Shown one piece after another: positions 5,987 to 57,928 of a stretch of 64,000 nucleotides of DNA; position 1 is the first letter of the stretch; each line of letters begins with the position of its first letter. A model generated the notes under the pieces. That model did not search any database, was not told the origin of the DNA, and saw only the letters and a program-made list of their open reading frames with translations. Location of the stretch: the NCBI RefSeq assembly GCF_017348835.2, contig NZ_CP071375.1; one strand, written 5' to 3'. This DNA is from Escherichia coli. GTDB taxonomy: Bacteria > Pseudomonadota > Gammaproteobacteria > Enterobacterales > Enterobacteriaceae. The position numbers and the translations under genes were made by a program.

Positions 5987-6398
5987 CTTCAATCAAACGC
6001 TTACCCAGACTCAGCACGTCGGCGTGTTCATATCCCAGGCGTTCATACATTCCGAGCACCATGTCGTTATCTTCCGGCACGTTGATCTGAATTTTCGGGC
6101 AGCCGCGAGCAATCAGCTTTTTCTCCAGCCGGTTAAGCAACGCATTGGCAATTCCACGCCCACGAAACTCTGGATGCACGCCAAGATAATAAGCAGACCC
6201 GCGATGCCCGTCATAACCGCCCATCACCGTTCCGACCACTTCACCGTTCACCTCAGCGACCAGAAACAAACTGACGTCATGGTTCATCTTACGCTCGATG
6301 TCCATTTCCGGATCGTTCCACGGACGCAGCAAGTCGCAACGCTCCCAAAGGGTGATGACCTCTTCGAAATCTTCCTGGCGAAATACGCGTATCTCCAT
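5973..6398 (-). CDS. ypeA: GNAT family N-acetyltransferase
   Basis: ORF trimmed to ATG 6396-6398 ([14 protein letters not shown]...); GNAT motif [10 protein letters not shown]; 141 aa. Confidence 0.88.
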
Positions 6399-11577: not shown

Positions 11578-12939
11578 TCAGAAGAACAGTGACGGATCGC
11601 CCGCCCGTTTGGTCAGGCGACCGTTTGCCATAATGCCCATGCTTTCCAGCCAGCGTTCAAACTCCGGTGACGGGCGCAGGTTGAGTAACTGACGCACAGT
11701 GGCGGTATCGTGGAATGCGGTGGTCTGGTAATTGAGCATGATGTCATCACCCAGCGGCATCCCCATGATGTAGTTGCAGCCTGCGGTGGCGAGCAGGATC
11801 ATCAGGTTTTCGTTGAGGTTCTGGTCAGCGTCAGCGTGGTTGGTGTAACAGCAGTCACAGCCCATAGAGATGCCGCTCAGCTTGCCCATAAAGTGATCTT
11901 CTAAGCCCGCACGAATAATCTGGCGGTCATTGTAGAGATACTCCGGCCCAATAAAGCCGACCACGGTGTTGACGATAAACGGATCGTAATGACGCGCCAG
12001 CCCGTAGTTACGCGCTTCCATGGTCACCTGGTCTGCGCCGTAGTTGGCACCCGCCGACAGCGCCGAACCTTGCCCGGTTTCGAAGTAGAGGCAGTTTTCC
12101 CCGGCGATACGGTTGAACTCTGCACCCACTGCGCGCGCTTCGTCGAGCATCGCCAGTTCCACGCCAAACTCTTTCAGCCCTTTTTCACTGCCACAGATAC
12201 TCTGGAAAATCAGCCCGCCTGGTGCGCCACGACGAATCGCTTCGATCTGGGTGGTGACGTGCGCCAGTACGCAGCCCTGAGTTGGGATGTTGAATTTGTC
12301 GATCACGCCATAGATGGTGTCCAGCACGCGGCTTAAGTTTTCCACGTCGTCAGTTACCGGGTTGACGCCGATCACCGCATCGCCCACCCCGAAGGAAAGC
12401 CCTTCGTAGATTTGCGCGGCGATACTTTGCACGTCGTCACGGGTGTCATTTGGCTGCAAACGGGCGCTAAAGGTGCCCGGAATACCGATGGTGGTATTGG
12501 CCTTTTTGATTACCGGCATTTTCTTCGCGCCGTAGATCAGGTCCGCGTTGGAGCAAATCTTCGCTACCGCCGCGACCACTTCCGAGGTCAGCCCTTTGCG
12601 GGTAAAGGCAATGTCGTCCACGCTGGTTTCATCGCTCAGCACATACTCACGCAGTTCGCTGATGCTCCAGTTTTTAATCTGGTTGTAGGCCGTTTCGTTA
12701 ACATCGTCCTGAATCAGCCGCGTCACGCAGTCATCTTCATAGGCAATCACCGGATTATTGCGGATGTCCGCTACGGTCATTTCCGACAACACCTGCTTTG
12801 CTGCCACGCGCTCCTGTGAGCTTGCCGCTGCAACGCCCGCCAGCACATCCCCCGAACGCAGTTCGTTGGCTTTAGCCAGCACCTCTTTTACATCCTTAAA
12901 CTGATATACATTGCCGAACAATGTGGTCTTTAGTTTCAT
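11578..12939 (-). CDS. eutB: Ethanolamine ammonia-lyase large subunit
   Basis: ORF trimmed to ATG 12937-12939 (MKLKTTLFGNVYQF...); 453 aa. Confidence 0.93.
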   Translation of the reverse strand: MKLKTTLFGNVYQFKDVKEVLAKANELRSGDVLAGVAAASSQERVAAKQVLSEMTVADIRNNPVIAYEDDCVTRLIQDDVNETAYNQIKNWSISELREYVLSDETSVDDIAFTRKGLTSEVVAAVAKICSNADLIYGAKKMPVIKKANTTIGIPGTFSARLQPNDTRDDVQSIAAQIYEGLSFGVGDAVIGVNPVTDDVENLSRVLDTIYGVIDKFNIPTQGCVLAHVTTQIEAIRRGAPGGLIFQSICGSEKGLKEFGVELAMLDEARAVGAEFNRIAGENCLYFETGQGSALSAGANYGADQVTMEARNYGLARHYDPFIVNTVVGFIGPEYLYNDRQIIRAGLEDHFMGKLSGISMGCDCCYTNHADADQNLNENLMILLATAGCNYIMGMPLGDDIMLNYQTTAFHDTATVRQLLNLRPSPEFERWLESMGIMANGRLTKRAGDPSLFF

Positions 12940-13050
12940 AAGTCGTTCCCTCAGGAAGAAGTGATGAGTGACATTTTTCACAGCCTTCAAACAATTCTAT
13001 TTCATCGTTAACCCTTGTCCTGTAAGGTAATTACCTTAGTACGCCCGCTA

Positions 13051-13087
13051 TTCATCCTGCCGAACGCAACCGAACGCGCCGGATACA
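13051..13087. repeat. Left att-like imperfect direct repeat (ttcatcctgcc..N17..ccggataca)
   Basis: Shares the 11-bp and 9-bp arms at the same spacing with 22476-22511. Confidence 0.5.
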
Positions 13088-13127
13088 TGAGCGGGGTTAT
13101 CGAGTCGTTAGATCGAGGTATCCGGTT

Positions 13128-14333
13128 TTGAGCAAGACACCACTGACAGCAAAGGCCATAGAGGCCGCACAACCGCAGGACAAGCCCTATAAACTCACCG
13201 ATTCACAGACACCTGGCCTGTTTTTGCTGGTCCATCCCAACGGCAGCAAATACTGGCGATTCCGGTATTGGATAGACAAGAAGGAGCGGTTACAGGCTAT
13301 TGGGGTGTATCCGCTGATTAGCCTCAAGGAAGCCCGCAAACGCGCCACAGAGAGCCGTTTACTGATAGCCCAGGGAATTGACCCAATGGATTTGGCACGC
13401 AAGGAGAAAGCCATTGATGCTCTTAATGCTATCGCCAGTTTTAAAGCTGTAGCAGAAGACTGGATGGCTACCAAGGTGAGCGGATGGAGTGAGAGCTATA
13501 CAAAGCAGGTCAGATCGGCACTAGAGAAAGATGTTTACCCCGTGCTAGGTAAGCGGTCGATAGTGGATATAACGGCCCGTGACGTGCTGGCGTTACTACA
13601 GAAAAAGGAGCGCACCGCACCGGAACAAGCCAGGAAATTACGCCAGCGTATCGGGGAGATCTTCAAATTTGCCGTTATCACTGAACTGGTTAACCGGAAT
13701 CCGGTTGCAGATCTGGATACGGCACTGAAAGCCAGACGCCCAGGCCATAACGCGTGGATACCGATTAATGAAATTCCGGCCTTCTACAAAGCCCTTGAGA
13801 GAGCTGGGAGCGTTCAGATTCAGACGGCAATACTTTTGCTCATCCTCACAGCTTTGAGGACGGCAGAATTGCGCCTGATGCGCTGGGAATGGGTAGATCT
13901 GCAATCGGCAACAATCACATTGCCCGCTGAAGTCATGAAGGCCCGCCGACCGCATGTTGTCCCGCTATCCCGGCAGGCGGTCGAGCTATTACAGGACCAG
14001 TTTACCCGCAGCGGATACAGTGCTTTCGTCTTTCCTGGCCGATTCATGGACAAGCCACTTTCAGCCAGTGCCATCCTTAAAGCCCTGGAGCGTATCGGAT
14101 ACAAGTCGATAGCCACAGGCCACGGCTGGCGGACCACCTTTTCAACGGCGCTTAATGAGTCCGGCAGGTACTCACCAGACTGGATCGAAATCCAACTGGC
14201 CCACGTTCCGAAAGGCGTGCGCGGTGTTTATAACCAGGCGGCCTACCTGAAGCAACGACGGGCCATGATGCAGGATTATAGCGACTGTATTGATTCAATA
14301 CTGGCTGGTGACGGTAATCCACTTGAACCGTGA
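13128..14333 (+). CDS. intZ: P4-family tyrosine site-specific integrase
   Basis: 401-aa ORF; AP2-like N-terminal domain; C-terminal catalytic region with R..HGWR..Y signature (HGWRTTFSTAL, RGVYNQAAY); first island gene beside the left repeat. Confidence 0.88.
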   Translation: MSKTPLTAKAIEAAQPQDKPYKLTDSQTPGLFLLVHPNGSKYWRFRYWIDKKERLQAIGVYPLISLKEARKRATESRLLIAQGIDPMDLARKEKAIDALNAIASFKAVAEDWMATKVSGWSESYTKQVRSALEKDVYPVLGKRSIVDITARDVLALLQKKERTAPEQARKLRQRIGEIFKFAVITELVNRNPVADLDTALKARRPGHNAWIPINEIPAFYKALERAGSVQIQTAILLLILTALRTAELRLMRWEWVDLQSATITLPAEVMKARRPHVVPLSRQAVELLQDQFTRSGYSAFVFPGRFMDKPLSASAILKALERIGYKSIATGHGWRTTFSTALNESGRYSPDWIEIQLAHVPKGVRGVYNQAAYLKQRRAMMQDYSDCIDSILAGDGNPLEP

Positions 14334-14455
14334 ACTATAAGGCCGGGTTTATACTCAATATCGACGGTTGAAGCGCTCAAAAAACAACCGTGACAACCGT
14401 CACAAATATGCAATGTCAATGATCTGAATCAATAAATTGCCAATTCTTCGTTTCC

Positions 14456-14470
14456 ACTTTCGAATGAAAG
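14456..14470. repeat. 15-bp motif actttcgaatgaaag, copy 1 (internal inverted repeat ctttc/gaaag)
   Basis: Exact duplicate of 14591-14605. Confidence 0.7.
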
Positions 14471-14590
14471 CAAGATGCAGAAAAATAAATCACCATGAAA
14501 TCATGTACTTATTAATTTTGACCAAATGGTCCAAAATATCCTCGGTGAATCCATGCTTGCCACAGCCAGATGATTAATATTTAACCCATG

Positions 14591-14605
14591 ACTTTCGAAT
14601 GAAAG
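14591..14605. repeat. 15-bp motif actttcgaatgaaag, copy 2
   Basis: Exact duplicate of 14456-14470, 135 bp away, in AT-rich non-coding DNA. Confidence 0.7.
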
Positions 14606-14733
14606 TAAATTGATAAAAAAGTCAGTGTACACTAACTAAATCGAATATTTTTTGCGCTATGTTTGAATGATAATTGAGCAAAACTTTCGCAAGGTGTGAC
14701 GATGTGAGTAATTAATTTTAACTCTACAATAAA

Positions 14734-14791
14734 CCCATCCCGACAGGGATGGTACCTGGAGCGGAGCGAGAGGGACCATCCCCCTGTTTTT
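14734..14791 (+). terminator. Nested hairpins followed by a T-run (terminator-like; may also act on the minus strand)
   Basis: cccatcccgacagggatgg hairpin overlapping ggatggtacc..N16..gggaccatcc stem, then ccctgttttt. Confidence 0.45.
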
Positions 14792-14884
14792 AGTCTTTTG
14801 AAGTTAGTTTTTTAAGGGATTAAATAATTTTGCCTCAAATGAGACCACACCATACAAGGCCAAAAACAATCAGTATTGCGTGGA

Positions 14885-15400
14885 TCAGGCTGGTTTTTTA
14901 ACTATATACCCCGTATGCCAAGGATTCTGATCGCGCGGCATCGGGTCCGCCTTGATAGACTCATAAAACTTATCAGCCATCTCAGCCACAAACTGTACAG
15001 AGGATTCGAACTCAGCGTTTTTGTGTGCGGGAGGAAACCAGAAGTCTAACACGCCAGCATTTCTATTTTTACATACAGCGTATATAAGATAAGCATCAGA
15101 TGTAGGGGTAACTTTTTCGAAACCACCGGGACCATAACGACCAGTAGACCAGTCATCCCAGCATTGTTCTGTCCCGCTATAGCCGTACTGATTGGTATAA
15201 AGACCAATATTTACATGGACTTTACGTAAGTGGATAGGATATACACACGGGGGTTTATGGAAAAGAGTATCCTTTCCAAAATCAGGATGATGTCCATATC
15301 TCCAATGATAAATAAACGAATCCTTAAAGCTCTTTAATTCATCGTTTGTTTTAAACTTATTATCACTGTAGACCTTACCAATAAATTCATTCTGGACCAT
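14885..15400 (-). CDS. Hypothetical protein (171 aa), distal gene of two-gene island cassette
   Basis: ORF 14885-15403; ATG at 15398-15400; overlaps upstream gene by 14 nt; Trp/Tyr/His-rich, no family recognised. Confidence 0.6.
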   Translation of the reverse strand: MVQNEFIGKVYSDNKFKTNDELKSFKDSFIYHWRYGHHPDFGKDTLFHKPPCVYPIHLRKVHVNIGLYTNQYGYSGTEQCWDDWSTGRYGPGGFEKVTPTSDAYLIYAVCKNRNAGVLDFWFPPAHKNAEFESSVQFVAEMADKFYESIKADPMPRDQNPWHTGYIVKKPA

Positions 15401-15734
15401 CAAAGCTTACACTCTTTAAGCGTTCTTCTCGTGAATCGAATAAATCTTTTGATAAATCACACGCTTGTGTGAACGTCATTTTTTTTACTCGTGGTACAGC
15501 CATAGGCGAGGCCGCATTCATCACTTTGTTTTCTTCGTGATCGAGAGTAGCAGTGTAGCGAAACATGACACTTTTACCGCGCACCAACTGGTATCCTAGT
15601 CGATACGCTAACGCGTCAAGATGCGTCAGACGATTTGTTTTACGCAAGCCAGTCATAGCTTTTGGCTTACGAGTGCGCACAGAAAGGGATTTCCCTTCTC
15701 GCTTAGTCGCAAACAAAGTAACTATTTTTGACAT
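15387..15734 (-). CDS. Hypothetical basic protein (115 aa), proximal gene of two-gene island cassette
   Basis: ATG 15732-15734 preceded by GGAGA RBS; Lys/Arg-rich; stop overlaps start of downstream gene. Confidence 0.55.
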   Translation of the reverse strand: MSKIVTLFATKREGKSLSVRTRKPKAMTGLRKTNRLTHLDALAYRLGYQLVRGKSVMFRYTATLDHEENKVMNAASPMAVPRVKKMTFTQACDLSKDLFDSREERLKSVSFDGPE

Positions 15735-16290
15735 GGTATCTCCTGACATCAATCTGCTAAGGCCATTGTGCCTTGTTTGAATAGTAAACTATTCGCCCAA
15801 TCTACACCAGTGATTTTCTTGACGCCAATAGTAAAGGCAGCATTGCCCACCACAGGCAGACAATGAGACTTCAGATAGCGCACCTTCTATCGCGCACGCG
15901 CTCAATAAAACCAACGACACCGCCATCCTGCCTGACCGATGTTTTTAACCAGCGTATACAGAGAAACAGACAACAGCATGAAATCAGCGTATATCCAGGT
16001 GCAGACGGCACTATCACACAACGCACAGCAGGCTGAGGTGAACACTCAAGCAACTTTATCCCCGCCACCGACCACCGCAAACTATCATGACCGTGCCAAA
16101 TTCAAAAGGAATGGCCCATATAACGCGATGAACACACATAAGCGCTACACTTGCTTACCTGAAAACTTCACAGCGTCACAGCGCGTTTTAGACACGTTAA
16201 AATTAATGAGATTTCATTAAATTTTCACCAGACACCGGAACAAGCCTATAAATCAAAAATGAATTACCGACATGCGCCGCTGGCGTTCAC

Positions 16291-16310
16291 AGGAAGAATC
16301 AATAACTTAG
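16291..16310. repeat. Imperfect direct repeat aggaagaatcaataacttag, copy 1
   Basis: 17/20 identical to 16391-16410, exactly 100 bp downstream. Confidence 0.55.
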
Positions 16311-16390
16311 GCCAATGGCGAAAGTTAAACAAAATCAAGAACTTGCAGAAATGCAGGATGAAGCAGCCGATGTGCCCCGTTGGATTTTAC

Positions 16391-16410
16391 CAGAAGAATC
16401 AACAAGTTAG
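16391..16410. repeat. Imperfect direct repeat cagaagaatcaacaagttag, copy 2
   Basis: See 16291-16310. Confidence 0.55.
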
Positions 16411-16662
16411 ACTCGGTGATTTCACCGACTCCTGCCGGACTACTGACCAGATCGAACCATTCCCCAAATTTGGGGAGAGCAAACCACACGCAGATCCTGC
16501 CAGGCTATTTCATCCCACCGCATCACGTATTTGCACACTTCCCCGCTGACGTGCTCATTTTGATAACGAGTTACCCGCTAGCCCTTGCCACATCACCATT
16601 TGTCGCGCTTTGACTAAATTAGCGACGTGCCTGTTATAGCGATACGCTAGTTATGCAGAAAG

Positions 16663-16682
16663 CGCGACATATCCAGCAACCA
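16663..16682. repeat. Exact 20-bp direct repeat cgcgacatatccagcaacca, copy 1
   Basis: Identical to 16790-16809; lies just upstream of the 16707 ORF start. Confidence 0.7.
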
Positions 16683-16706
16683 TGCACCCTACAGAGGAAT
16701 TGAATC

Positions 16707-17159
16707 ATGCGAGACATAGACTGGTCAGCTATCCCTTTCGATGATTTACCGCCCTGGCATCTGGACTGGGACGTAGACCAACGCGAAAACGCGACATATC
16801 CAGCAACCACCAGCATTACAGCGATGCGCCCCGTAAAGCCTAAGAAATACCAGGCAACCGACCTGATAGCTCACCTCAAAGCTATTGGCGGCGTATTTAC
16901 CGGAAGCAAAGACACGCTTGCACATGAAGTATGGCCCCGGAAGACGCCAGCGGGTCGAACCGTTTTACGCTTACTGACCGAACTGTCAGACAACGGCGAC
17001 GCTGTAGTGATTAACCGTGGTCGTTGTGGCGTGGAAGTTATTCTGACGCCGAAGAACAGGGCACAGACGCCTGAATTAAGCGCACCCAAGCAAATGCATA
17101 GCCAAAAATTAAGTCCAGCAGAACGCGTTATATCGCTTTTAAATGGCATCGGATTTTAA
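16707..17159 (+). CDS. Hypothetical protein (150 aa)
   Basis: ORF with GAGG RBS about 10 nt upstream of the ATG; non-repetitive composition; no family recognised. Confidence 0.5.
   Translation: MRDIDWSAIPFDDLPPWHLDWDVDQRENATYPATTSITAMRPVKPKKYQATDLIAHLKAIGGVFTGSKDTLAHEVWPRKTPAGRTVLRLLTELSDNGDAVVINRGRCGVEVILTPKNRAQTPELSAPKQMHSQKLSPAERVISLLNGIGF
16790..16809. repeat. Exact 20-bp direct repeat cgcgacatatccagcaacca, copy 2
   Basis: Inside the 5' end of the 16707 ORF; 127 bp from copy 1. Confidence 0.7.
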
Positions 17160-17185
17160 TTAATTTTGATGTGGTAATTGCAGGC

Positions 17186-17213
17186 AAAAAAATCCCGCCG
17201 GAGAAAGCGGGGA
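17186..17213 (-). terminator. Intrinsic terminator-like hairpin oriented for the minus strand
   Basis: Minus-strand reading ccccgctttctccggcggg followed by U7 (plus strand aaaaaaa-tcccgccggagaaagcgggga). Confidence 0.5.
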
Positions 17214-17446
17214 AGTGAAATCAATCGTTGTAGTTATAGATCACATTTTGGAGTTGAGGATGGCTAATCCTCGCTAATATTATCGCGCCGTTATGTGATG
17301 GGCGCAATTATTTCTTACTAATTAAAAGTTTTGTAAATATTACAGAATATCCCTTTTCACTATATGGTAAAAGATGTGAAACAGGGACATGAGGAATATA
17401 ATATTAAGTATCAACAGTAATGTTGGTCTTTAATTTCATTCAGGGC

Positions 17447-17490
17447 GCGGTGAGGGTTTTCTCCATATTTTTCCTCACCGCTACTTTTTC
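17447..17490 (+). terminator. Terminator/attenuator-like hairpin immediately upstream of the AlpA-like gene
   Basis: gcggtgagg..N17..cctcaccgc stem then tactttttc; a third complementary segment gaggtgag overlaps the RBS of the next gene. Confidence 0.45.
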
Positions 17491-17501
17491 GAGGTGAGAA
17501 C

Positions 17502-17693
17502 ATGAATGATAGCGAATTAATGACGGTGAACGAGGTAGCCGCTTTATTCGGCGTTACCCGTCGGACAATATTCCGGTGGATGAACAAGATTAAAGGCTGG
17601 CCCGTCCCGGTCAGTCCGATTGGCTCAAGAATTAAGTTTATCCGATCTGAGATTTTGGAATTCTATAAAAACAAAGGCGCTCGCCACCAATGA
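17502..17693 (+). CDS. AlpA/Xis-like small DNA-binding regulator (phage transcriptional regulator family)
   Basis: 63-aa ORF with HTH-like segment VNEVAALFGVTRRTIFRWM; GAGGTGA RBS. Confidence 0.65.
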   Translation: MNDSELMTVNEVAALFGVTRRTIFRWMNKIKGWPVPVSPIGSRIKFIRSEILEFYKNKGARHQ

Positions 17694-17769
17694 AAACAGC
17701 TACTGAGATTATCAAATAACCTATTGATTTAAAAAGCTAGCTACCGCAATTTCTGAAGGAATAGGCAGC

Positions 17770-18096
17770 ATGAAAATCAAAGCAAACACAATTAAAGAAA
17801 TAACATCAATCAAAGTAAAAGGAGCAGATGCCATGCATTCATTAGATAGTTATTTTCAGCGCACGACAGCCCCTAAATCAGCCGCCCAGGAACGCCGTGA
17901 GGAATTCCAGGAAAAAGTGATGCGTTCTGCTGATTATATTGCGGACAAGTTCGCGGAAACGGTTCGGCCACTTGTTGATGAAGTAGCTGATAAACTTCAG
18001 TCTGAAATGCCGGAAGACATGGAAGGCACTGCAAAGGCGCGACTCCTTTTTGAATTAAGTCGTCGTTTCGGCGTGTCAATAAGCACTTTTAAATAA
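17770..18096 (+). CDS. Hypothetical phage protein (108 aa)
   Basis: ORF in co-directional island gene string; no family recognised. Confidence 0.5.
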   Translation: MKIKANTIKEITSIKVKGADAMHSLDSYFQRTTAPKSAAQERREEFQEKVMRSADYIADKFAETVRPLVDEVADKLQSEMPEDMEGTAKARLLFELSRRFGVSISTFK

Positions 18097-18113
18097 TCGG
18101 AGGAGGAAAGACA

Positions 18114-18656
18114 ATGGACGCATTTGATGTACTGACAAACAAAGGCGATGAACTGGTAGCACAGCGTGATAAAACCGCCAACGAAGGGGAACGCGCACTG
18201 TTAAATAAGCAGATTAAAGCGATCCGTATGGCCCAGTTTAAATTAATCAGCAATGAAGTTATCGAAAAAATTAAACCGCAGATCCCACAAATCGTTGCTG
18301 ACGCTATTAAAGCCGCCGGACTGGAGAAACGCATTGCCGGGCTGAAAACGAACGCAGAGAAAATGGAGATGCACAAACAGAGCGGTGCTCCGACTCCGGA
18401 TGAGTACTTCTCACCGGATGCTGAGTTTATGGCGCAGGTTGAGGAACGTCTGGGTAGCTGTCTCACCGAGGAACAGTGTCGCTATTTTGATGGAGTGGAT
18501 AGTTCGGCAGGTATTGACCTGAACTCGTATTTCGGTCGTGAAATTGAGCATTTTGATGCCGCCCCGTCTATGCCGGAGCCAGAACCAGAAATGGCCGCCG
18601 ATCCTGAAGCTGAGCAACGGAAACGCGTATTCAATGCGATAGGGATTCGGTACTGA
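18114..18656 (+). CDS. Hypothetical phage protein (180 aa), acidic C-terminus
   Basis: ORF preceded by GGAGGAAAG RBS (18092-18108); no family recognised. Confidence 0.55.
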   Translation: MDAFDVLTNKGDELVAQRDKTANEGERALLNKQIKAIRMAQFKLISNEVIEKIKPQIPQIVADAIKAAGLEKRIAGLKTNAEKMEMHKQSGAPTPDEYFSPDAEFMAQVEERLGSCLTEEQCRYFDGVDSSAGIDLNSYFGREIEHFDAAPSMPEPEPEMAADPEAEQRKRVFNAIGIRY

Positions 18657-18707
18657 TCGGATAAAAGAAAGCCGGGAATTACCCCGGCTGACTTAACAAT
18701 GTGACCA

Positions 18708-19082
18708 ATGAACAAATCGGACAAGACAAACAGGATAAGCAGTCTCGAAACAATGTTCGGGAACTATATTAGCACAAGTCCGGAGAAAATCATCATGTTG
18801 GCACTACGCATCATGCAGGGCATCGCTAAGACCCTCGCAGAACATGTCTTAGACCTGAAACATTCGCCACTGAGCAAACAGGCCATGAAGCGCCAAACGC
18901 TTCGTCTGTGGGCTGAATATTCGCTTGGAACTATCAATAAAATCATCGACATGAAATCGGGGCCGAGCAACCAGAGCGCGGAGGAAATGGAGTTCATCAG
19001 GCGTTTAATTCTCATTCGCAGAGACATTCATAGCCAGTTACACAGCGTGGGAATCGATATTAATGATGGGACGGGCGATTAA
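18708..19082 (+). CDS. Hypothetical phage protein (124 aa)
   Basis: ORF in co-directional gene string. Confidence 0.45.
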   Translation: MNKSDKTNRISSLETMFGNYISTSPEKIIMLALRIMQGIAKTLAEHVLDLKHSPLSKQAMKRQTLRLWAEYSLGTINKIIDMKSGPSNQSAEEMEFIRRLILIRRDIHSQLHSVGIDINDGTGD

Positions 19083-19120
19083 TTTTCGGACAAGTACTAT
19101 GCGCGCGCGAGGAGCTGAAC

Positions 19121-19351
19121 ATGAAGCAAGATATTGCAGACAGGCTGGAGATACTCGAAGGCCAGCGGGCAGAAGCGAAACAACTACGTAAGCAGGCCAG
19201 AAGAGCGCACAGGAACTACGAAGCAGAATCACTGACCGCTTTCATCAACTTCACAAACCGTTGCATCCTGGAGTGTTACAGGGAGGATGCAGAAAACTGG
19301 CTGGATTCATTGCCAGAACAGACTCTGCATGAACTGAACGGCGACCAGTAA
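19121..19351 (+). CDS. Hypothetical phage protein (76 aa)
   Basis: ORF with GAGGAG RBS upstream. Confidence 0.45.
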   Translation: MKQDIADRLEILEGQRAEAKQLRKQARRAHRNYEAESLTAFINFTNRCILECYREDAENWLDSLPEQTLHELNGDQ

Positions 19352-19638
19352 ATAAATCCAGTACGTTTCCCGCAGTGCGCATAACGTACATTATGTGAAA
19401 AACGATATGGATATATATCAGTCTGACTTCAATGAAGAAAACGGACTTCCAGCATCAACCACAAAGAAGTATGGCTAATGCAGCTTTATAAGCCATTGAT
19501 TCTATTAAACGATATTTTTTGTGATTGGTTGAAGCAAACCAAAACACGATGCCACTGAAGCGTTAATAAACTGTTTCAATGTGAAATTATCAGAGTAAAG
19601 AACAATTTGGAGGGTCCGCAAACGCGGATAACAATATC

Positions 19639-21819
19639 ATGAGTGGAAATCTCGGGACCATATACTACGAGGTCGATGCCCGCACTGGGAAACTTCTTAT
19701 CGCGCAACAGCAGGCGGAAGAGGCGTTCGATCGCATTGAACGAGGAGCGCGGAAGGCTGATAGCGGCGTCAAAAAGTTAAATACGCAGATGACTAAAACA
19801 TCAGCCGCAGTCAAAACCAACCTTTCCCCGGCAATCCGTAACGCATCATACCAGATCGCAGACCTTGCCACTCAATTGCAGATGGGCGGTAATGCGCTTC
19901 AGGCGTTCGCTGTGCAGGGTGCGCAGTTATTAGCTGGCTTTGGCACGATGGGCGCGGTAGCTGGCGCGGTGCTGGCTATCGCTGGCGCTATGGGTGGAAG
20001 CCTGGCACAAGGCGCTGATAGTGCAGCCGGATCGGTTGAGTATCTGGACAAGGCGATCACCAAACTGAACGAGGTCATAGCTGTAAATGAACAGGGCGTG
20101 ACGGTGATGAGTGATAGTTACGCCAGACTTTCTAAGGTTAACGCTGAAGTAGCGAAACAGATGCGGAACATGGCTGAAATTCAGGCAATTGCAGCACTGC
20201 GTGACCTGAAAGAACAGGCAAGCCAGGCACAGGGGGAAATGTCGTCATTCTGGCGCAGCTTGCAGGGTGGTAAAGCTGACGCAGCAGCAGCAGCACAGGC
20301 ACTTGATGATCTTGGAATCACAACCAACGACTACAAAGAGGCGATAGCCATACTGAACGCCAATCAGCCGGATACACAGGCGCAAATGGCAACGCTAGCT
20401 AAGTCCGTGATGTACATAGGCGAGGAATACAACCTGACAAACCAGCAAGCCTACGAGTTCATCCGAGCACTAAATAGGGCCGCGACAACGAGAACGCCGG
20501 AAGCCATGCAGGAACTATCGGGCTTCATGCAGGTATTGCTACAGGACACCGAAAACGGTAACGAGGCATTCCGTGAACTGGCTATCAAATTCGTTGATGC
20601 ACAAACCAAAGGCGCAATGCTGGAAGACCAACTAAACCGACTGAAAGGCGCTATCAGTGACGCAGCCACAGAAGCCAGAAACGCCAATTTTACCACTATG
20701 CTCAACACCGTCGCCGCACGCCTGGCAGCCATTGAGCAAGGTTGGGAGGCAGGCGTTAGGATGCAGATGAAAGCCCAGGGCTACACTGAAGAGCAGATCG
20801 ATGAATATGTGAACATGGAAACGGCGTACCGTGATGCAAAAGCCGCTTTGGACGAGAAGAATAAGGCCGACCGTGAAGCTATTGCGCTATCCAAACGCCA
20901 GGCCGCAGAAGCAGCCCGCAAGGCAAAACAGGAAGAAGCTGAAGCACAACGCAAGGCCAAACAGTTAGCCGCGCAGAAGGAGCAGGCAGGACGCTTTACG
21001 CAGCAAGTAATGACGGAATACCTGACGACCGTAGATCCGGCAACAGGCAAGGCGTTTAACCCTGCCGCACAAGTAGAAATGCAGGAGCAGCAGAAGAAAG
21101 CGGCGCTGGATAAATACAGACAGTTGGGCGTCCTGGATGAACAGCAGTACCAGAACACGCTAACCGCCATCCAGAAAACCGCGTCAATGCGCCGCCAGCA
21201 AATCATCAAAGACGAGGCCGACACGTTATTCAACAATCAGCAACAGTTGATCGGCACATTTGGCGATTTCTTCGGTGAACTGTCTGGAGTCATAGCAGAC
21301 GGTGCAGGTGAGCAAAACGCGGCATATCAAGCGCTATTTGCTGTGCAGAAGGGTTTTGTATTGGCATCAGCAGCTTTAAGCCTTCAGAAAGCGCTTGCTG
21401 AGGCAAACGCCTTGCCTTTCCCGGCTAATCTTCCGGCCTATGCGCAAGCTATGTCAGCAGGCACGCAGATCATTTCAGCTATTCGTGGAATAGCTTTCGG
21501 TGGCGGACGCTACAACGGCGGCGCGGTTGGTGCTGGCAACCTGTACCGCGTGGGTGAACACGGTAAGCCTGAGATATTCAAGGCGAACAATGGCAGCCAG
21601 TACATGATCCCAGGTGATAACGGTCGCGTGATAAGTAATCGTGACATTGGCGGCGGTGGCGGCGTAACAATCAACAGCCCGATCACCATTAACACTACGA
21701 ATGGCTTCAGTGATGAAGACTCAAGGCGTCTTGAGGAAGCGATGAAGCGCGTAGCTATGGGCGTTTGCAGGCAGGAGTCAACCAGACCGGGAGGAATGTT
21801 AGCCCCGCGCCGTCGTTAA
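19639..21819 (+). CDS. Phage tail tape-measure-like protein (lambdoid H-like), orphan
   Basis: 726-aa Ala/Gln-rich coiled-coil ORF; C-terminal GNLYR motif and Gly-rich tail as in lambda H; no neighbouring tail genes. Confidence 0.6.
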   Translation: MSGNLGTIYYEVDARTGKLLIAQQQAEEAFDRIERGARKADSGVKKLNTQMTKTSAAVKTNLSPAIRNASYQIADLATQLQMGGNALQAFAVQGAQLLAGFGTMGAVAGAVLAIAGAMGGSLAQGADSAAGSVEYLDKAITKLNEVIAVNEQGVTVMSDSYARLSKVNAEVAKQMRNMAEIQAIAALRDLKEQASQAQGEMSSFWRSLQGGKADAAAAAQALDDLGITTNDYKEAIAILNANQPDTQAQMATLAKSVMYIGEEYNLTNQQAYEFIRALNRAATTRTPEAMQELSGFMQVLLQDTENGNEAFRELAIKFVDAQTKGAMLEDQLNRLKGAISDAATEARNANFTTMLNTVAARLAAIEQGWEAGVRMQMKAQGYTEEQIDEYVNMETAYRDAKAALDEKNKADREAIALSKRQAAEAARKAKQEEAEAQRKAKQLAAQKEQAGRFTQQVMTEYLTTVDPATGKAFNPAAQVEMQEQQKKAALDKYRQLGVLDEQQYQNTLTAIQKTASMRRQQIIKDEADTLFNNQQQLIGTFGDFFGELSGVIADGAGEQNAAYQALFAVQKGFVLASAALSLQKALAEANALPFPANLPAYAQAMSAGTQIISAIRGIAFGGGRYNGGAVGAGNLYRVGEHGKPEIFKANNGSQYMIPGDNGRVISNRDIGGGGGVTINSPITINTTNGFSDEDSRRLEEAMKRVAMGVCRQESTRPGGMLAPRRR

Positions 21820-22315
21820 CCAAATCCCACGCCAGGGGGATAGACTGGCGGCCTTTCAATTCCGTTGAAACGACGGAATCAAACACCCCGATTCAGGGTA
21901 TTTAAACGTCGCGTTTCACGACATTTATCTAAGTCATTGATTTATATTGTAACTCATAATTGAGTTGCGCCGACCATCCCGCCACAAACGCTCCTACGCA
22001 AAAATTCCCTCACAATTACCCTGCCAATTTTCCAGATTTCACGTATACGCGCCTATATCCCCGCCACCGGATACACGCCCGCTTATACCGGATACTTTTA
22101 TGCCATCATTATTAAATCCATTAATAATCATCAAACCATAATTAGCACAACTTATAATCGAACAAAAAACACACAACATTGATAATGATTTTTTCTGGTT
22201 ATACTTATCTAAAAAAGTGGTATGGGAAGTAACTTATTGTTTTGTAATTACAAATTTATTGCGTGGTCAGATGAACAGACTTGCGCACCTCCCGAAAAAC
22301 ACGCGAAAATCGAAG

Positions 22316-22426
22316 TGTTCTTTCTTTTTTTGTTTTTTATTTTTTTATTTTCTCTTTTTCTTCTCTTTCCGGTTCTCTTCTTTTTCTGGTTTTGGTTTTT
22401 TCCTTTTTTATTTTTATTCTTTCTTC
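22316..22426. repeat. ~110-nt homopyrimidine (T/C-rich) low-complexity tract
   Basis: About 90% pyrimidine on the top strand by eye; no plausible coding frame. Confidence 0.7.
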
Positions 22427-22475
22427 AGGGTTGTGATCAAACACACCAAAACATTTTCGCCACAAAAGCGTTAAT

Positions 22476-22511
22476 TTCATCCTGCCAGACCATTCACTTT
22501 CACCGGATACA
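22476..22511. repeat. Right att-like imperfect direct repeat (ttcatcctgcc..N16..ccggataca)
   Basis: Partner of 13051-13087; a further partial copy (caccggatacac) at 22065-22076. Confidence 0.5.
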
Positions 22512-22572: not shown

Positions 22573-23976
22573 TCAGGAAGGAAATGCGAGTGATTTCACC
22601 GTCACCGGCACAACCGATCCGCCAAAAAGAGGCGTACCAATGTCGATATAGTCCCCCGCGCGGACAATCACTTCGTCAATGACTGCCAACGGGAGTTGTT
22701 GTAGCTGTGGGCGCAACAACATGCCCAGAGCTTTACCAAAGTCCTGCCCGGCCACCACCAGCAGGGGATGCGGATTCGGAAAACGCGCGACGAAATCGAC
22801 CAACGCGTTGATGACCGTCAGTACCGCGGCGTAACGCACAGGCAGCGAGGCGGGAAGCGCCAGCACGTACGCGTCAGTTTTGGGATCAAGATCCAGCTGA
22901 ATCAGCGCCTGTTGCCAGGCACTCACCAGATCCGTTTCATCAATCGGGATCGCCACCGGCAAATTGCGCAGCGGCAGTTGTACGCCCTCCAGCCAGATTG
23001 TGCTGCCAGAGAGCGAAAGGGTATGTGCACCCGCGCCAATCACCGTGGCGCGTACGGTTTGCGCCGGAAACTGCACGTTCATCTCACGCAGGCGCGGATG
23101 GTCATGCAGCGCCGTTGCCAGAAGCGGGCCAATATCGGCAAAACAGAACGGGTCGGCGGGCTGGTGGCGATAACATTCGCCCACGCCGCCAGAAAGCGTA
23201 ATGATTTCGGGCGTAACACCTGCGGGCAGCAAACCGGTTTGCATTAATGCCTGCGCGAGCGGCGAAAGCGTTCCGTCAATCACTTCGACAATCAGCTCTG
23301 CCATCCGCCAGGTAACCTGCACCAGCTGCGCGCCGGTCAGCGAACGGGCGTCGGTGCCTGCGCCGAAGCACTCATCCACAATCATCTGCCCCGGTTTATG
23401 AGCGTAAACCACGCGCCCCTGGCTGTCGGTTTCCAGCAGGCGACCACCGACGTTGAGGCAGGCAGTGCCGCTGATTTTTCCGGCATCGAACAGGGCGTAG
23501 TTCGCGGTGCCACCGCCGATGTCGATATTCAGTACCCGACACAGCCGTTGTTCAGAAAGGGTTTGCGCCCCGGCACCGTGACCGGCGATCACGGATTCGA
23601 GGTGCGGCCCGGCGCTGGCGACGACAAAATCGCCCAGCGACTGAGAGAGCGCCATCACCGCCGGGCGAGCATTGCGGGTTTTCGCGCTTTCACCGGTGAT
23701 GATGATGGCACCAGAATCAACGCTTTCCGGCGCAATGCCCGCAGCCTGATATTGCTCTAAAATCAGCGATTTCAGTTCCGCTTCTTTTAAACCACCCTGT
23801 TTATCGACAGGGGTAAAGAACACCGGGCTTTGCCAGCTAATTTCGCGTTTGATGAATTCGTAGCGCGGCACCTGCGACACCGCCGCACGGTTAACCAGTT
23901 CCAGGTGGGAGAAAATCACCTGGGTGGTGGTGGTGCCGATATCGATACCGACGCTCAGTAGCTGGCGAGTGTTCAC
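22573..23976 (-). CDS. eutA: Ethanolamine ammonia-lyase reactivating factor
   Basis: 467-aa ORF; conserved eut order. Confidence 0.92.
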   Translation of the reverse strand: MNTRQLLSVGIDIGTTTTQVIFSHLELVNRAAVSQVPRYEFIKREISWQSPVFFTPVDKQGGLKEAELKSLILEQYQAAGIAPESVDSGAIIITGESAKTRNARPAVMALSQSLGDFVVASAGPHLESVIAGHGAGAQTLSEQRLCRVLNIDIGGGTANYALFDAGKISGTACLNVGGRLLETDSQGRVVYAHKPGQMIVDECFGAGTDARSLTGAQLVQVTWRMAELIVEVIDGTLSPLAQALMQTGLLPAGVTPEIITLSGGVGECYRHQPADPFCFADIGPLLATALHDHPRLREMNVQFPAQTVRATVIGAGAHTLSLSGSTIWLEGVQLPLRNLPVAIPIDETDLVSAWQQALIQLDLDPKTDAYVLALPASLPVRYAAVLTVINALVDFVARFPNPHPLLVVAGQDFGKALGMLLRPQLQQLPLAVIDEVIVRAGDYIDIGTPLFGGSVVPVTVKSLAFPS

Positions 23977-31280: not shown

Positions 31281-31978
31281 AGGGATTGCCAGTTAGCCGG
31301 CCAGGCGACATACAGGAATTTCACGCTGGATGTCGTACCAAATTCGATGCTGGAGCCTTTCGGGATAAACATCACGTCACCCGCTTTGGCGATCATGGTT
31401 TCGCCTTCGTGGCGAACATGCAGCTCCCCTTCCAGCACCATGTCGATTTCGTCGTAGTTCAGGGTCCACGGGAAGAATGCGTTCTCCCACTGCATAAAAC
31501 CGGCGGCCATGCTGCTGCCGTCGTCTCCGGTCACAAGATCAGTCAAGCCCACGCAATGCGGTTGTGCGCCATCAAAACGACCAAACTTGACGCTGCTGCC
31601 ATCAATCACTTTGATGCCGCCTTTGCCGGTCACCGATTTGAAGCTCGGCAGCATTGCGCCCTGCTCCAGCGACTGTTTTTCCTTCATCACTTTTTCCATC
31701 AGCTGCGCGACCAGGCTTTCGGTAAACTGGCCTTCCGGCAGCTGGGCAATGATGGTTTCGCGGATGCGCTGGCTTTCGGTTTTATCGGCTGGCACGCTGG
31801 CGGGAACAGACGCCGTTACCGGGATCGATTCATCACATTCGGTGATGGTAAAACCCAGTAGATCCGCCACTTCACGGGCTTCCGGGGTAATAATGCTGGC
31901 GCGCAGAACCACGGACATTGCCTGTTCGCCGCGCGCGTGTGCTTCACGAATATCATTCGCTGTGATGAGTTTTTTCAC
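31277..31978 (-). CDS. eutQ: Cupin-fold protein EutQ
   Basis: 233-aa ORF. Confidence 0.9.
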   Translation of the reverse strand: MKKLITANDIREAHARGEQAMSVVLRASIITPEAREVADLLGFTITECDESIPVTASVPASVPADKTESQRIRETIIAQLPEGQFTESLVAQLMEKVMKEKQSLEQGAMLPSFKSVTGKGGIKVIDGSSVKFGRFDGAQPHCVGLTDLVTGDDGSSMAAGFMQWENAFFPWTLNYDEIDMVLEGELHVRHEGETMIAKAGDVMFIPKGSSIEFGTTSSVKFLYVAWPANWQSL

Positions 31979-42515: not shown

Positions 42516-42720
42516 AACGACCTTCTTTTTTGGTTGTAAAAACCTTATTCTTTATATGAGTGTTGTTATTACCCGACTTACAGGGGAATCGGCAATGTTC
42601 ATGTGCCCAGAATAAGTAACTATTTCGCTATAAACTGTGGCAGATCAAATAATCCCATCACTGACTAAATTGCGTTTCAGCGAACTGGAACATTAATGAT
42701 TTTTTGTGGAGAAGACGCGT

Positions 42721-44421
42721 GTGATTGTTAAACGACCCGTCTCGGCCAGTCTGGCCCGGGCCTTTTTTTACATTGTGCTGCTGTCGATTCTTTCCACGGG
42801 TATCGCTCTGCTAACTCTGGCGAGCAGTTTGCGCGACGCTGAGGCTATCAATATTGCCGGATCGCTGCGTATGCAGAGTTACCGCCTGGGCTACGACTTG
42901 CAAAGTGGCAGTCCACAACTCAATGCACATCGCCAGTTATTTCAGCAGGCACTGCATTCACCGGTATTAACCAACCTCAACGTCTGGTATGTGCCAGAAG
43001 CAGTAAAAACTCGCTATGCGCATCTGAATGCAAACTGGCTGGAGATGAATAATCGGCTCAGCAAGGGCGATTTGCCGTGGTATCAGGCCAATATTAATAA
43101 TTATGTTAATCAGATAGACCTGTTCGTGCTGGCTTTACAGCACTACGCTGAACGCAAAATGCTGCTGGTGGTGGCGATTTCCCTGGCTGGCGGTATCGGT
43201 ATTTTCACGCTGGTCTTTTTTACTTTGCGCCGCATACGCCATCAGGTGGTTGCCCCGCTGAATCAGCTGGTTACCGCCAGTCAGCGTATTGAACACGGAC
43301 AGTTCGACTCGCCGCCGCTGGATACCAGTCTGCCGAATGAGCTTGGTCTGCTTGCAAAAACCTTTAACCAGATGTCGAGCGAGCTGCATAAATTGTACCT
43401 TTCGCTGGAGGCGTCAGTAGAAGAAAAGACCCGCGATCTCCACGAGGCCAAGCGTCGTCTGGAGGTGTTGTATCAGTGTTCGCAGGCGCTGAACACCAGC
43501 CAGATTGATGTGCATTGTTTCCGCCATATTTTGCAGATTGTTCGCGACAATGAAGCGGCTGAATATCTGGAGCTGAACGTTGGGGATAACTGGCGGATTA
43601 GCGAAGGGCAACCAAACCCGGAATTGCCGATGCAGATTTTACCGGTGACAATGCAAGAGACGGTTTACGGCGAACTGCACTGGCAAAATAGTCACGTTTC
43701 ATCATCAGAACCGCTGCTTAACAGCGTTTCGTCGATGCTGGGACGCGGTTTGTACTTTAATCAGGCGCAGAAGCATTTTCAGCAGTTATTGTTGATGGAA
43801 GAACGTGCGACCATCGCCCGCGAATTGCACGACTCGCTGGCTCAGGTGCTTTCTTACTTACGTATCCAGTTGACGTTACTTAAGCGTTCGATACCGGAAG
43901 ATAACGCCACCGCACAAAGTATCATGGCCGATTTTTCCCAGGCGTTGAATGATGCTTATCGGCAGTTACGCGAGCTGTTGACTACTTTCCGCCTGACGCT
44001 GCAGCAGGCGGATCTCCCCTCCGCGTTGAGGGAAATGCTGGATACGTTACAAAATCAAACCAGCGCCAAACTGACCCTCGACTGCCGTCTGCCAACCCTG
44101 GCACTGGATGCGCAAATGCAGGTGCATTTGTTGCAAATTATTCGCGAAGCGGTGCTGAATGCGATGAAGCACGCCAACGCCAGCGAAATCGCCGTCAGTT
44201 GCGTCACCGCGCCGGACGGCAATCACACGGTTTATATCCGTGATAACGGGATTGGTATCGGTGAACCGAAAGAGCCCGAAGGTCATTATGGACTGAATAT
44301 CATGCGCGAACGCGCGGAACGGCTGGGCGGGACGCTGACTTTTTCACAACCTTCCGGCGGCGGCACGTTAGTGAGTATTAGCTTTCGCTCCGCGGAGGGT
44401 GAGGAAAGTCAGCTGATGTAA
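42721..44421 (+). CDS. narQ: Nitrate/nitrite sensor histidine kinase
   Basis: ORF trimmed to GTG 42721 (MIVKRPVSASL...); HAMP and HisKA_3/HATPase domains. Confidence 0.9.
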   Translation: MIVKRPVSASLARAFFYIVLLSILSTGIALLTLASSLRDAEAINIAGSLRMQSYRLGYDLQSGSPQLNAHRQLFQQALHSPVLTNLNVWYVPEAVKTRYAHLNANWLEMNNRLSKGDLPWYQANINNYVNQIDLFVLALQHYAERKMLLVVAISLAGGIGIFTLVFFTLRRIRHQVVAPLNQLVTASQRIEHGQFDSPPLDTSLPNELGLLAKTFNQMSSELHKLYLSLEASVEEKTRDLHEAKRRLEVLYQCSQALNTSQIDVHCFRHILQIVRDNEAAEYLELNVGDNWRISEGQPNPELPMQILPVTMQETVYGELHWQNSHVSSSEPLLNSVSSMLGRGLYFNQAQKHFQQLLLMEERATIARELHDSLAQVLSYLRIQLTLLKRSIPEDNATAQSIMADFSQALNDAYRQLRELLTTFRLTLQQADLPSALREMLDTLQNQTSAKLTLDCRLPTLALDAQMQVHLLQIIREAVLNAMKHANASEIAVSCVTAPDGNHTVYIRDNGIGIGEPKEPEGHYGLNIMRERAERLGGTLTFSQPSGGGTLVSISFRSAEGEESQLM

Positions 44422-49952: not shown

Positions 49953-49960
49953 GCTAAGTG

Positions 49961-50040
49961 GCCGGATAAGGCGTTAACGCCGCATCCGGCAATGGTGAAC
50001 GATGCCTGATACGACGCATCACGCGTCTTATCAGGCCTGG
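49961..50040. repeat. REP element
   Basis: gccggataaggcgttaacgccgcatccggca and partner. Confidence 0.5.
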
Positions 50041-56740: not shown

Positions 56741-56885
56741 GGGCCATCCTCTGTGCAAACAAGTGTCTCAATGGTACGTTTGGTATGGCATTAAAAGCAA
56801 GCAGACAGAACCGTTCTGATTGTTGTATGCATGTTTTTTTTATGCTTTCCTTAAGAACAACTCACCCCTTAAAGGAATAACCAGT

Positions 56886-57458
56886 TTGACACTGTCATCG
56901 CAACATTATCTGGTGATCACTGCGTTGGGTGCCGATCGCCCTGGAATTGTGAACACCATCACCCGTCATGTCAGTAGTTGCGGCTGTAATATTGAAGACA
57001 GTCGCCTGGCGATGCTGGGAGAAGAGTTCACGTTTATCATGCTGCTTTCCGGTTCATGGAATGCCATCACTCTGATTGAATCAACGTTACCGTTGAAAGG
57101 TGCCGAACTGGATCTTTTAATCGTGATGAAGCGCACGACGGCGCGTCCGCGTCCGCCAATGCCAGCATCTGTCTGGGTTCAGGTCGATGTGGCAGACTCC
57201 CCGCATTTAATTGAACGCTTCACAGCACTTTTCGACGCGCATCATATGAACATTGCGGAGCTGGTGTCGCGCACGCAACCTGCTGAAAATGAACGGGCTG
57301 CGCAGTTGCATATTCAGATAACCGCCCACAGCCCCGCATCTGCGGACGCAGCAAATATTGAGCAAGCGTTCAAAGCCCTATGTACAGAACTCAATGCACA
57401 AGGCAGTATTAACGTCGTCAATTATTCCCAACATGATGAACAGGATGGAGTTAAGTAA
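56886..57458 (+). CDS. gcvR: Glycine cleavage system transcriptional repressor
   Basis: In-frame TTG start at 56886 gives the 190-aa MTLSSQHYLVITALGADRPGIV... protein. Confidence 0.8.
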   Translation: MTLSSQHYLVITALGADRPGIVNTITRHVSSCGCNIEDSRLAMLGEEFTFIMLLSGSWNAITLIESTLPLKGAELDLLIVMKRTTARPRPPMPASVWVQVDVADSPHLIERFTALFDAHHMNIAELVSRTQPAENERAAQLHIQITAHSPASADAANIEQAFKALCTELNAQGSINVVNYSQHDEQDGVK

Positions 57459-57928
57459 TGAATCCACTGAAAGCCGGTGATATCGCACCGAAATTTAGCT
57501 TGCCGGATCAAGACGGAGAACAAGTTAATTTGACCGACTTCCAGGGACAGCGTGTTCTGGTTTATTTCTACCCGAAAGCCATGACCCCCGGCTGTACCGT
57601 ACAGGCCTGCGGCTTACGCGATAACATGGATGAGTTGAAAAAAGCGGGCGTTGATGTGCTGGGTATCAGCACCGATAAACCCGAAAAACTCTCCCGTTTT
57701 GCGGAAAAAGAGCTGCTTAACTTCACGCTCCTGTCTGATGAGGACCACCAGGTGTGCGAGCAATTCGGCGTCTGGGGGGAAAAGTCCTTCATGGGCAAAA
57801 CCTACGATGGTATTCATCGCATCAGCTTCCTGATTGACGCTGATGGCAAAATCGAACATGTCTTTGACGATTTCAAAACCAGCAATCACCACGACGTTGT
57901 GCTGAACTGGCTGAAAGAACACGCCTGA
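57458..57928 (+). CDS. bcp: Thiol peroxidase / peroxiredoxin Bcp
   Basis: 156-aa ORF; ATG overlaps the gcvR stop by 1 nt. Confidence 0.93.
   Translation: MNPLKAGDIAPKFSLPDQDGEQVNLTDFQGQRVLVYFYPKAMTPGCTVQACGLRDNMDELKKAGVDVLGISTDKPEKLSRFAEKELLNFTLLSDEDHQVCEQFGVWGEKSFMGKTYDGIHRISFLIDADGKIEHVFDDFKTSNHHDVVLNWLKEHA

Follow-up and report, generated by a model that had tools for sequence, protein, structure and literature searches.

Weak start codons limit the synthesis of some regulatory or low-abundance proteins, and infC of E. coli, which begins with AUU, is such a case. The genes narQ and gcvR, which begin with GTG and TTG, resemble infC in having a sub-optimal start codon that would limit a regulatory or low-abundance protein. 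For infC an autoregulatory loop via IF3 discrimination has been demonstrated; to our knowledge, comparable feedback is known for neither narQ nor gcvR.

The narQ start site of E. coli K-12 has itself been described, together with the ambiguous AUGUG/GUGUG starts of pqiA and tamA (PMC9841429; Nucleic Acids Res 2022). In all three, NUG codons offset by 2 nt overlap and compete for one ribosome positioned by a Shine-Dalgarno (SD) sequence. Unlike pqiA and tamA, narQ is the case with a bare start-stop alternative frame and with expression that depends on A4, the A at coding position 4. That study also names GGAG as the narQ SD, gives aligned SD spacings of 14 and 16, predicts ambiguity with the 5' GUG favoured, and lists NarQ abundance as 0.115 ppm. 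The narQ reporter was a 20-nt UTR of K-12 sequence fused to luciferase and assayed off the chromosome. Ribosomes also initiated at the 5' GUG, terminated at once at the UGA, and reinitiated. Output from the annotated GUG fell ~5-fold when A4 was changed to G, and it was ~7–8-fold higher with one distinct GUG than with GUGUGA. The authors concluded that narQ depends on termination-reinitiation.

We analyzed a stretch of 64,000 nucleotides (hereafter, the window) that matches the reverse strand of E. coli PE164 NZ_CP114128.1 at 1302522–1366521 without a single mismatch over its full length. The gene order of this E. coli chromosome segment is murQ ... eut ... maeB-tal-tkt ... aegA-narQ-acrD ... 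dapA-gcvR-bcp-hyf. ATG opens 57 of the 62 complete annotated coding sequences (CDSs) in the window, GTG three (eutA, eutQ, and narQ), and TTG two (intZ and gcvR), so that non-ATG starts account for 5/62. Annotated bacterial genes usually begin with ATG, GTG, and TTG at frequencies of 81.8%, 13.8%, and 4.35%, respectively (bioRxiv 10.1101/063800), and start codon frequencies of ~82/14/4% are quoted in PMC9841429 as well. Two non-ATG starts in 64 kb, those of narQ and gcvR, are therefore ordinary and represent no enrichment over chance. An Rfam scan of the whole window gave a single match, a REP-type naRNA4 element distant from the two starts, and a tRNA scan of the window found none.

In RefSeq/PGAP records of genomes identical to the window, the narQ and gcvR CDSs start at 42721 and 56886. 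Both starts are thus standard annotation, though the first-pass annotation of this DNA had offered them as something to check. They are nevertheless a choice among candidates that needed testing, because the mechanical open reading frames reach farther upstream, to a GTG at 42706 for narQ and to a TTG at 56820 for gcvR.

The narQ start and its GUGUGA context

The features of the narQ 5' region are as follows.

42721..44421, plus strand: narQ CDS, 566 aa, nitrate/nitrite sensor histidine kinase (RefSeq)
42721..42723, plus strand: narQ start codon GTG, the RefSeq CDS start, invariant in 9/9 taxa
42708..42711, plus strand: narQ SD core GGAG, separated from the annotated GTG by 9 nt and from the 5' GUG by 7 nt
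42719..42724, plus strand: GUGUGA, in which the 5' GUG (42719–42721) overlaps the annotated 3' GUG and UGA (42722–42724) completes a one-codon start-stop ORF in another frame
42706..42708, plus strand: upstream in-frame GTG, rejected as a start; it would give MEKTRV-IVKRPV

As the first-pass annotation had it, narQ opens at exactly GTG 42721–42723, which is followed by ATT GTT AAA CGA CCC GTC to give (M)IVKRPV. The domain families of the protein (PilJ, HAMP, HisKA_3, and HATPase_c) agree with the RefSeq name, and residues 1–230 match PDB 5IJI from residue 1. The SD duplex with the anti-SD has an energy of −6.4 kcal/mol. What the first-pass annotation overlooked is that this GTG is embedded in GUGUGA. 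A second NUG lies 2 nt upstream of the annotated start and overlaps it (GTGTG, 42719–42723), coding position 4 is A, and the SD spacing reaches both GUGs, with gaps from GGAG of 7 nt and 9 nt. SD GGAG, 5' GUG, UGA, and 3' GUG are identical to those of the K-12 site of PMC9841429, with no sequence difference. Since the 61 nt around the narQ start are equal to K-12 (strain H28), the published reporter results apply to the window. Within the species the site is nearly uniform, and the 22 nt covering it (42712–42733) were found exactly in 5,356 of 5,426 complete E. coli genomes (98.7%).

Orthologous DNA for narQ and gcvR was collected gene by gene. For narQ, the 5' comparison was limited to nine taxa (E. 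coli, Escherichia sp. MOD1, E. whittamii, E. fergusonii, Salmonella, C. farmeri, C. koseri, C. rodentium, and Leclercia), because the metagenome loci used for gcvR stop short of narQ. Leclercia NCTC13032 has apparent frameshifts shortly 3' of both starts and was used for start-codon context only. A purine-rich SD (GGAG, GGGAG, AGGAA, or GGGGA) stands at a constant distance from the GTG in 9/9 taxa, and except for this SD the upstream sequence is practically unalignable. Variable columns were distributed over the three codon positions as 3/5/11 downstream of the GTG and as 13/14/14 upstream of it, and every one of the 57 gapped columns lay upstream. Protein-coding constraint, seen as codon periodicity and absence of indels, therefore begins at the GTG, with none before it. 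Four taxa (C. farmeri, C. koseri, C. rodentium, and Leclercia) have an in-frame stop 18–51 nt upstream of the GTG and no ATG, GTG, or TTG between the two, so that the GTG is their first possible narQ start. The best 120 database NarQ sequences all begin with M[I/T/V]VKR, except for one truncated entry and one that reads MRV-IVKR. This last entry derives from an ATG of E. fergusonii two codons upstream, just 3 nt past the SD.

The ambiguous context is less widely shared than the start codon within it. GTGTGA was present in four of the nine taxa (E. coli, Escherichia sp. MOD1, E. whittamii, and C. farmeri); the corresponding site is TTGTGA in Leclercia, GAGTGA in E. fergusonii and C. rodentium, GCGTGA in Salmonella, and GCGTGG in C. 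koseri. Judged from this alignment, the patchy distribution argues against a deeply conserved, indispensable regulatory role, although it only weakens that idea, and it suggests that the GUGUGA feature may be evolutionarily young or dispensable.

The first-pass annotation had named evidence for a different start site as what would count against its reading. Such evidence exists in part: the 5' GUG at 42719 also initiates in reporters (PMC9841429). The NarQ protein begins at 42721 all the same.

The gcvR start and its conserved Shine-Dalgarno sequence

Ghrist and Stauffer (1998) reportedly identified a UUG start for gcvR; a literature search on gcvR and UUG yielded no paper. The E. coli K-12 gcvR of RefSeq and UniProt (190 aa, MTLSSQHYL...) is the same protein with the same start coordinate as in the window, where the relevant features are the following.

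56886..57458, plus strand: gcvR CDS, 190 aa, ACT-domain repressor of the glycine cleavage system (WP_000176187.1)
56886..56888, plus strand: gcvR start codon TTG, the RefSeq CDS start, invariant in the orthologues examined
56872..56877, plus strand: gcvR SD AAGGAA, with 9 nt between its AGGA core and the TTG; duplex energy −5.6 kcal/mol
56834..56850, no strand assigned: intergenic block TTTTTTTTATGcTTtCC in the dapA-gcvR spacer, T-rich, with columns invariant across seven genera

The claim that gcvR opens at TTG 56886–56888 likewise held to the exact coordinate, the next codons being ACA CTG TCA TCG CAA CAT TAT CTG, for (M)TLSSQHYL. GcvR carries an ACT_6 domain and matches the V. cholerae GcvR structure 1U8S (E = 4e-39), with residue 6 aligned with residue 4 of 1U8S.

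The start codon was TTG in 9/9 genomes from four enterobacterial families, which comprised, besides E. coli, Salmonella, K. oxytoca, Pseudenterobacter, Leclercia, Serratia, another member of the Yersiniaceae, Dickeya, and Edwardsiella. AGGAA precedes the TTG at a fixed spacing in these genomes, and its position is conserved across seven genera. We also scanned metagenome contigs with a DNA pattern for DRPGIVNxITRHV, which gave 120 matches, 112 of them usable and representing 48 distinct gcvR 5' ends. All 48 had TTG, and 47 were in register; in the 48th, the TTG lies one codon upstream through a one-codon insertion (Pluralibacter-type MTASLHHHY). For column counts, 45 distinct metagenomic sequences were aligned from −30 to +48. 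Positions −13 to −9 (AGGAA) were identical in 43–45 of the 45, positions −8 to −2 varied freely, and TTG was present in 45/45. Codons 2–6 vary even at the amino acid level (23 different peptides for codons 1–8), and strong protein conservation sets in from codon 7. None of CTG, TTA, ATG, and GTG occurred at the start position in the 45–48 distinct metagenomic sequences. Variable columns fell 7/2/12 by codon position downstream of the TTG and were flat upstream, where all of the gaps were located. For both genes, comparative DNA thus sets the coding boundary at the same codons as RefSeq/PGAP.

Among complete E. coli genomes, the segment from the SD to 5 nt past the TTG (56872–56893) was exact in 5,424 of 5,426. 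A common E. coli polymorphism, A/G at 56871, is located immediately outside the SD. The TTG and its SD are among the most rigidly conserved features of the gcvR 5' end. Conservation of the T of this TTG, as a single base, could also reflect some overlapping constraint.

The conserved T-rich block at 56834–56850 is promoter-like and could contain a TATGnT −10 element, a role suggested by its sequence. Scans for consensus promoters and for terminators found nothing in either upstream region, 56834–56850 included. The gcvR promoter has been cited as a low-level constitutive promoter (PMC2615304). When the 80 nt surrounding each start were folded as RNA, neither segment was more structured than shuffled controls (z = −0.18 and −0.35). 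UUUCCUU (56846–56852) pairs weakly with the gcvR SD.

Alternative start codons

A narQ start at the GTG at 42706 would yield a 571-aa protein beginning with MEKTRVIVKRPV. This GTG is the first start candidate of the mechanical ORF, E. coli, Escherichia sp. MOD1, and E. whittamii share it, and it is located within the 20-nt UTR of the published reporter, in frame with the annotated start. Those three are, however, the only ones of the nine taxa to keep it: E. fergusonii, Salmonella, and the three Citrobacter species have GCG, AAG, or TCG there instead, and the four taxa with the in-frame stop have no start candidate upstream of the conserved GTG. The GGAG SD also overlaps the codon at 42706, for which SD pairing is weak (−3.3 kcal/mol versus −6.4 kcal/mol for the annotated GTG). 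The extension is absent from the best 120 database NarQ sequences, and we consider it very improbable. Initiation of gcvR at TTG 56820 or 56823 appears just as hard to sustain. It would produce the 212-aa form of some Salmonella and Klebsiella records and make TTG 56886 an internal leucine codon. The ORF is indeed open back to 56820, and many database entries for gcvR orthologues are 195–215 aa long. The two upstream TTG codons nevertheless lack an SD (duplex energy ~0 kcal/mol), and the extensions differ between genera in length and sequence. A 1-nt indel alters the upstream frame between lineages, codon periodicity is absent there, and in Pseudenterobacter an in-frame TAA stands 24 nt upstream of the TTG with no candidate start between them. 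A leucine codon should vary to CTG or TTA, whereas TTG was retained in 45/45 sequences while neighbouring codons changed even their amino acids. An extension would moreover cross the strongly conserved, promoter-like T-rich block at 56834–56850.

ATG is the strongest and commonest start codon, and translation of one or both genes might instead begin at the first ATG in frame, which is codon 51 in narQ and codon 43 in gcvR, leaving the 5' part untranslated. NarQ residues 2–50 and GcvR residues 7–42 are, however, conserved as protein, with changes that fall mostly in third positions. NarQ structures (5IJI and related entries) contain residues 1–230, and a start at codon 51 would remove the matching N-terminal stretch. 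The codon 43 ATG of gcvR falls within the ACT domain, whose alignment with 1U8S begins at residue 6. An ATG start for either gene is the least credible of these alternatives, with a probability close to nil.

Probable initiation mechanism and possible effect on regulator dosage

Ordinary SD-directed initiation at near-cognate codons, GTG 42721 for narQ and TTG 56886 for gcvR, very probably accounts for both starts, with weak starts that keep both regulators low. Initiator tRNA would read the GTG and the TTG as fMet. At narQ, ribosomes starting at the 5' GUG (42719) would meet UGA at once, terminate, and be able to restart at the annotated GUG, 2 nt away. Competition between the two GUGs would cut output ~7–8-fold relative to an unambiguous GUG and would, as in the reporters, depend on A4. 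At gcvR there is a fixed module, conserved across Enterobacterales, in which an 8-nt spacer of variable sequence links the SD AGGAA to the TTG. Such weak start codons would hold the low-abundance proteins NarQ and GcvR scarce, as reporters showed for narQ and as we infer for the chromosome.

No lineage switched the gcvR start to ATG or GTG, which suggests that GcvR synthesis may be under selection to stay low and that the weak codon itself may be selected. A tentative extension, which we regard as possible but rather doubtful, is that the gcvR UUG is a selected translational set-point keeping GcvR low relative to GcvA and that the narQ GUGUGA is a recent, lineage-restricted attenuator. If true, both would represent regulator dosage encoded in the start codon itself.

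Overall, the observation made in the first-pass annotation is confirmed and its reading supported. The essentials were already in standard annotation, and the narQ GUGUGA had already been published. The additions made here are descriptive and come from sequence comparison. They consist of the ambiguous narQ context, found in a subset of lineages, and of the gcvR SD-TTG module, which is invariant across Enterobacterales; that the weak TTG is so strictly conserved is a small addition of this kind. The supplements of two start-site datasets, TetRP and TRAINSPOTTER, mention neither narQ nor gcvR. The biological interest of the narQ site is modest; it is a published case of overlapping starts in which a one-codon start-stop ORF throttles translation.

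The relevance of both starts is mostly one of annotation quality, as gene callers that are restricted to ATG or biased toward the longest ORF misplace both of them. The warning that ATG-only calling would mis-annotate the two genes was borne out: such calling would place the starts at codons 51 (narQ) and 43 (gcvR), the first in-frame ATGs, and so truncate both proteins. Database GcvR orthologues span 180–252 aa, because ATG-restricted or longest-ORF-biased gene callers get the start wrong.

N-terminal calls for gcvR in public records

The start of gcvR is often mis-annotated in public records, because N-terminal calls differ around one conserved TTG (56886-56888 in the window). Annotated lengths of the GcvR orthologues retrieved from the databases (P0002-P0120) range from 180 to 252 aa, and among the orthologues inspected much of this spread was accounted for by differing N-terminal calls around that same codon. 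Longer calls include those of Salmonella (212 aa) and K. oxytoca (211 aa). A conserved intergenic motif, TTTTTTTTATGnTTwCC (block 2, listed below), carries an ATG that is in frame with gcvR in Serratia, Dickeya and a Yersiniaceae genome; in these three, a second gcvR-frame ATG lies 9 nt 3' of it. Gene callers place the Serratia gcvR start at this second ATG.

The putative gcvR leader and the junction with bcp

Alignment of the dapA-gcvR intergenic region identified two conserved blocks, each common to seven genera of Enterobacterales.

Conserved blocks of the dapA-gcvR intergenic region (window positions)
56793-56806, block 1, AAAAGCAAGCAnACA
56834-56850, block 2, TTTTTTTTATGnTTwCC

These are presumably promoter or regulatory elements of gcvR, of the divergent dapA, or of both; a consensus promoter scan detected neither block. 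Base pairing is possible between the Shine-Dalgarno (SD) region AAGGAA (56872-56877) and UUUCCUU (56846-56852) of the putative gcvR leader; the predicted fold was weak and not better than that of shuffled sequence (z = -0.35). Directly 5' of this SD, position 56871 is polymorphic (A/G). About 1,300 of 5,426 complete E. coli genomes carried one mismatch in the 61-nt gcvR start region, and in both genomes inspected (n = 2) the mismatch was the G allele at 56871.

At the 3' end of the gene, the bcp start codon overlaps the gcvR stop codon in the sequence TAATG (57456-57460). This overlap suggests that translation of bcp may be coupled to that of the weakly initiated gcvR.

The narQ start in other strains and species

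E. coli strain 81 (NZ_CP088131.1; positions 2501-2560 of comparison locus L019) is a natural narQ-null E. coli. In this genome, IS1 abuts the narQ GTGTG at a junction corresponding to window 42723/42724, narQ and acrD are deleted, and the resulting gene order is aegA, IS1, yffB. The E. fergusonii locus (L015, 1001-1009) has an in-frame ATG two codons 5' of the conserved narQ GTG (ATG CGA GTG), merely 3 nt past the SD. One E. fergusonii record starts narQ at this upstream ATG, giving a protein of 570 aa, and the majority start at the GTG.

Both gcvR and narQ appear to be frameshifted a few codons past their starts in Leclercia adecarboxylata NCTC13032 (L003, about 6030-6060 and 19990-20080). 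These frameshifts are probably homopolymer errors of this long-read assembly rather than marks of pseudogenes.

Other non-ATG starts and the integrase-bearing island

Besides narQ and gcvR, three genes in the window are annotated with non-ATG starts, and the first of them lies in an integrase-bearing island.

Annotated non-ATG starts and the island (window positions)
13128-13130, + strand, intZ start, TTG
23974-23976, - strand, eutA start, GTG
31976-31978, - strand, eutQ start, GTG
about 12600-22500, between eutA and eutB, integrase-bearing island

The eutQ start codon is contained in the 3' end of eutP. The island occupies the same place as the CPZ-55 prophage does in K-12. In addition to intZ, it encodes a YafO-family toxin with a small partner ORF upstream, a 63-aa HTH_17 protein that also matches the PADLOC 'mad1' model, and a 726-aa protein whose single match, to a tape-measure protein, was below threshold. 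Five island ORFs had no match to Pfam or PADLOC.

The sole Rfam match in the window was naRNA4, a REP-type repeat (85.7 bits; 49960-50037, + strand), located within the gap that separates the convergent ypfN and ypfH. The entire window (1-64000) is present with 0 mismatches in the pig isolate E. coli PE164, on the reverse strand of NZ_CP114128.1 (1302522-1366521).
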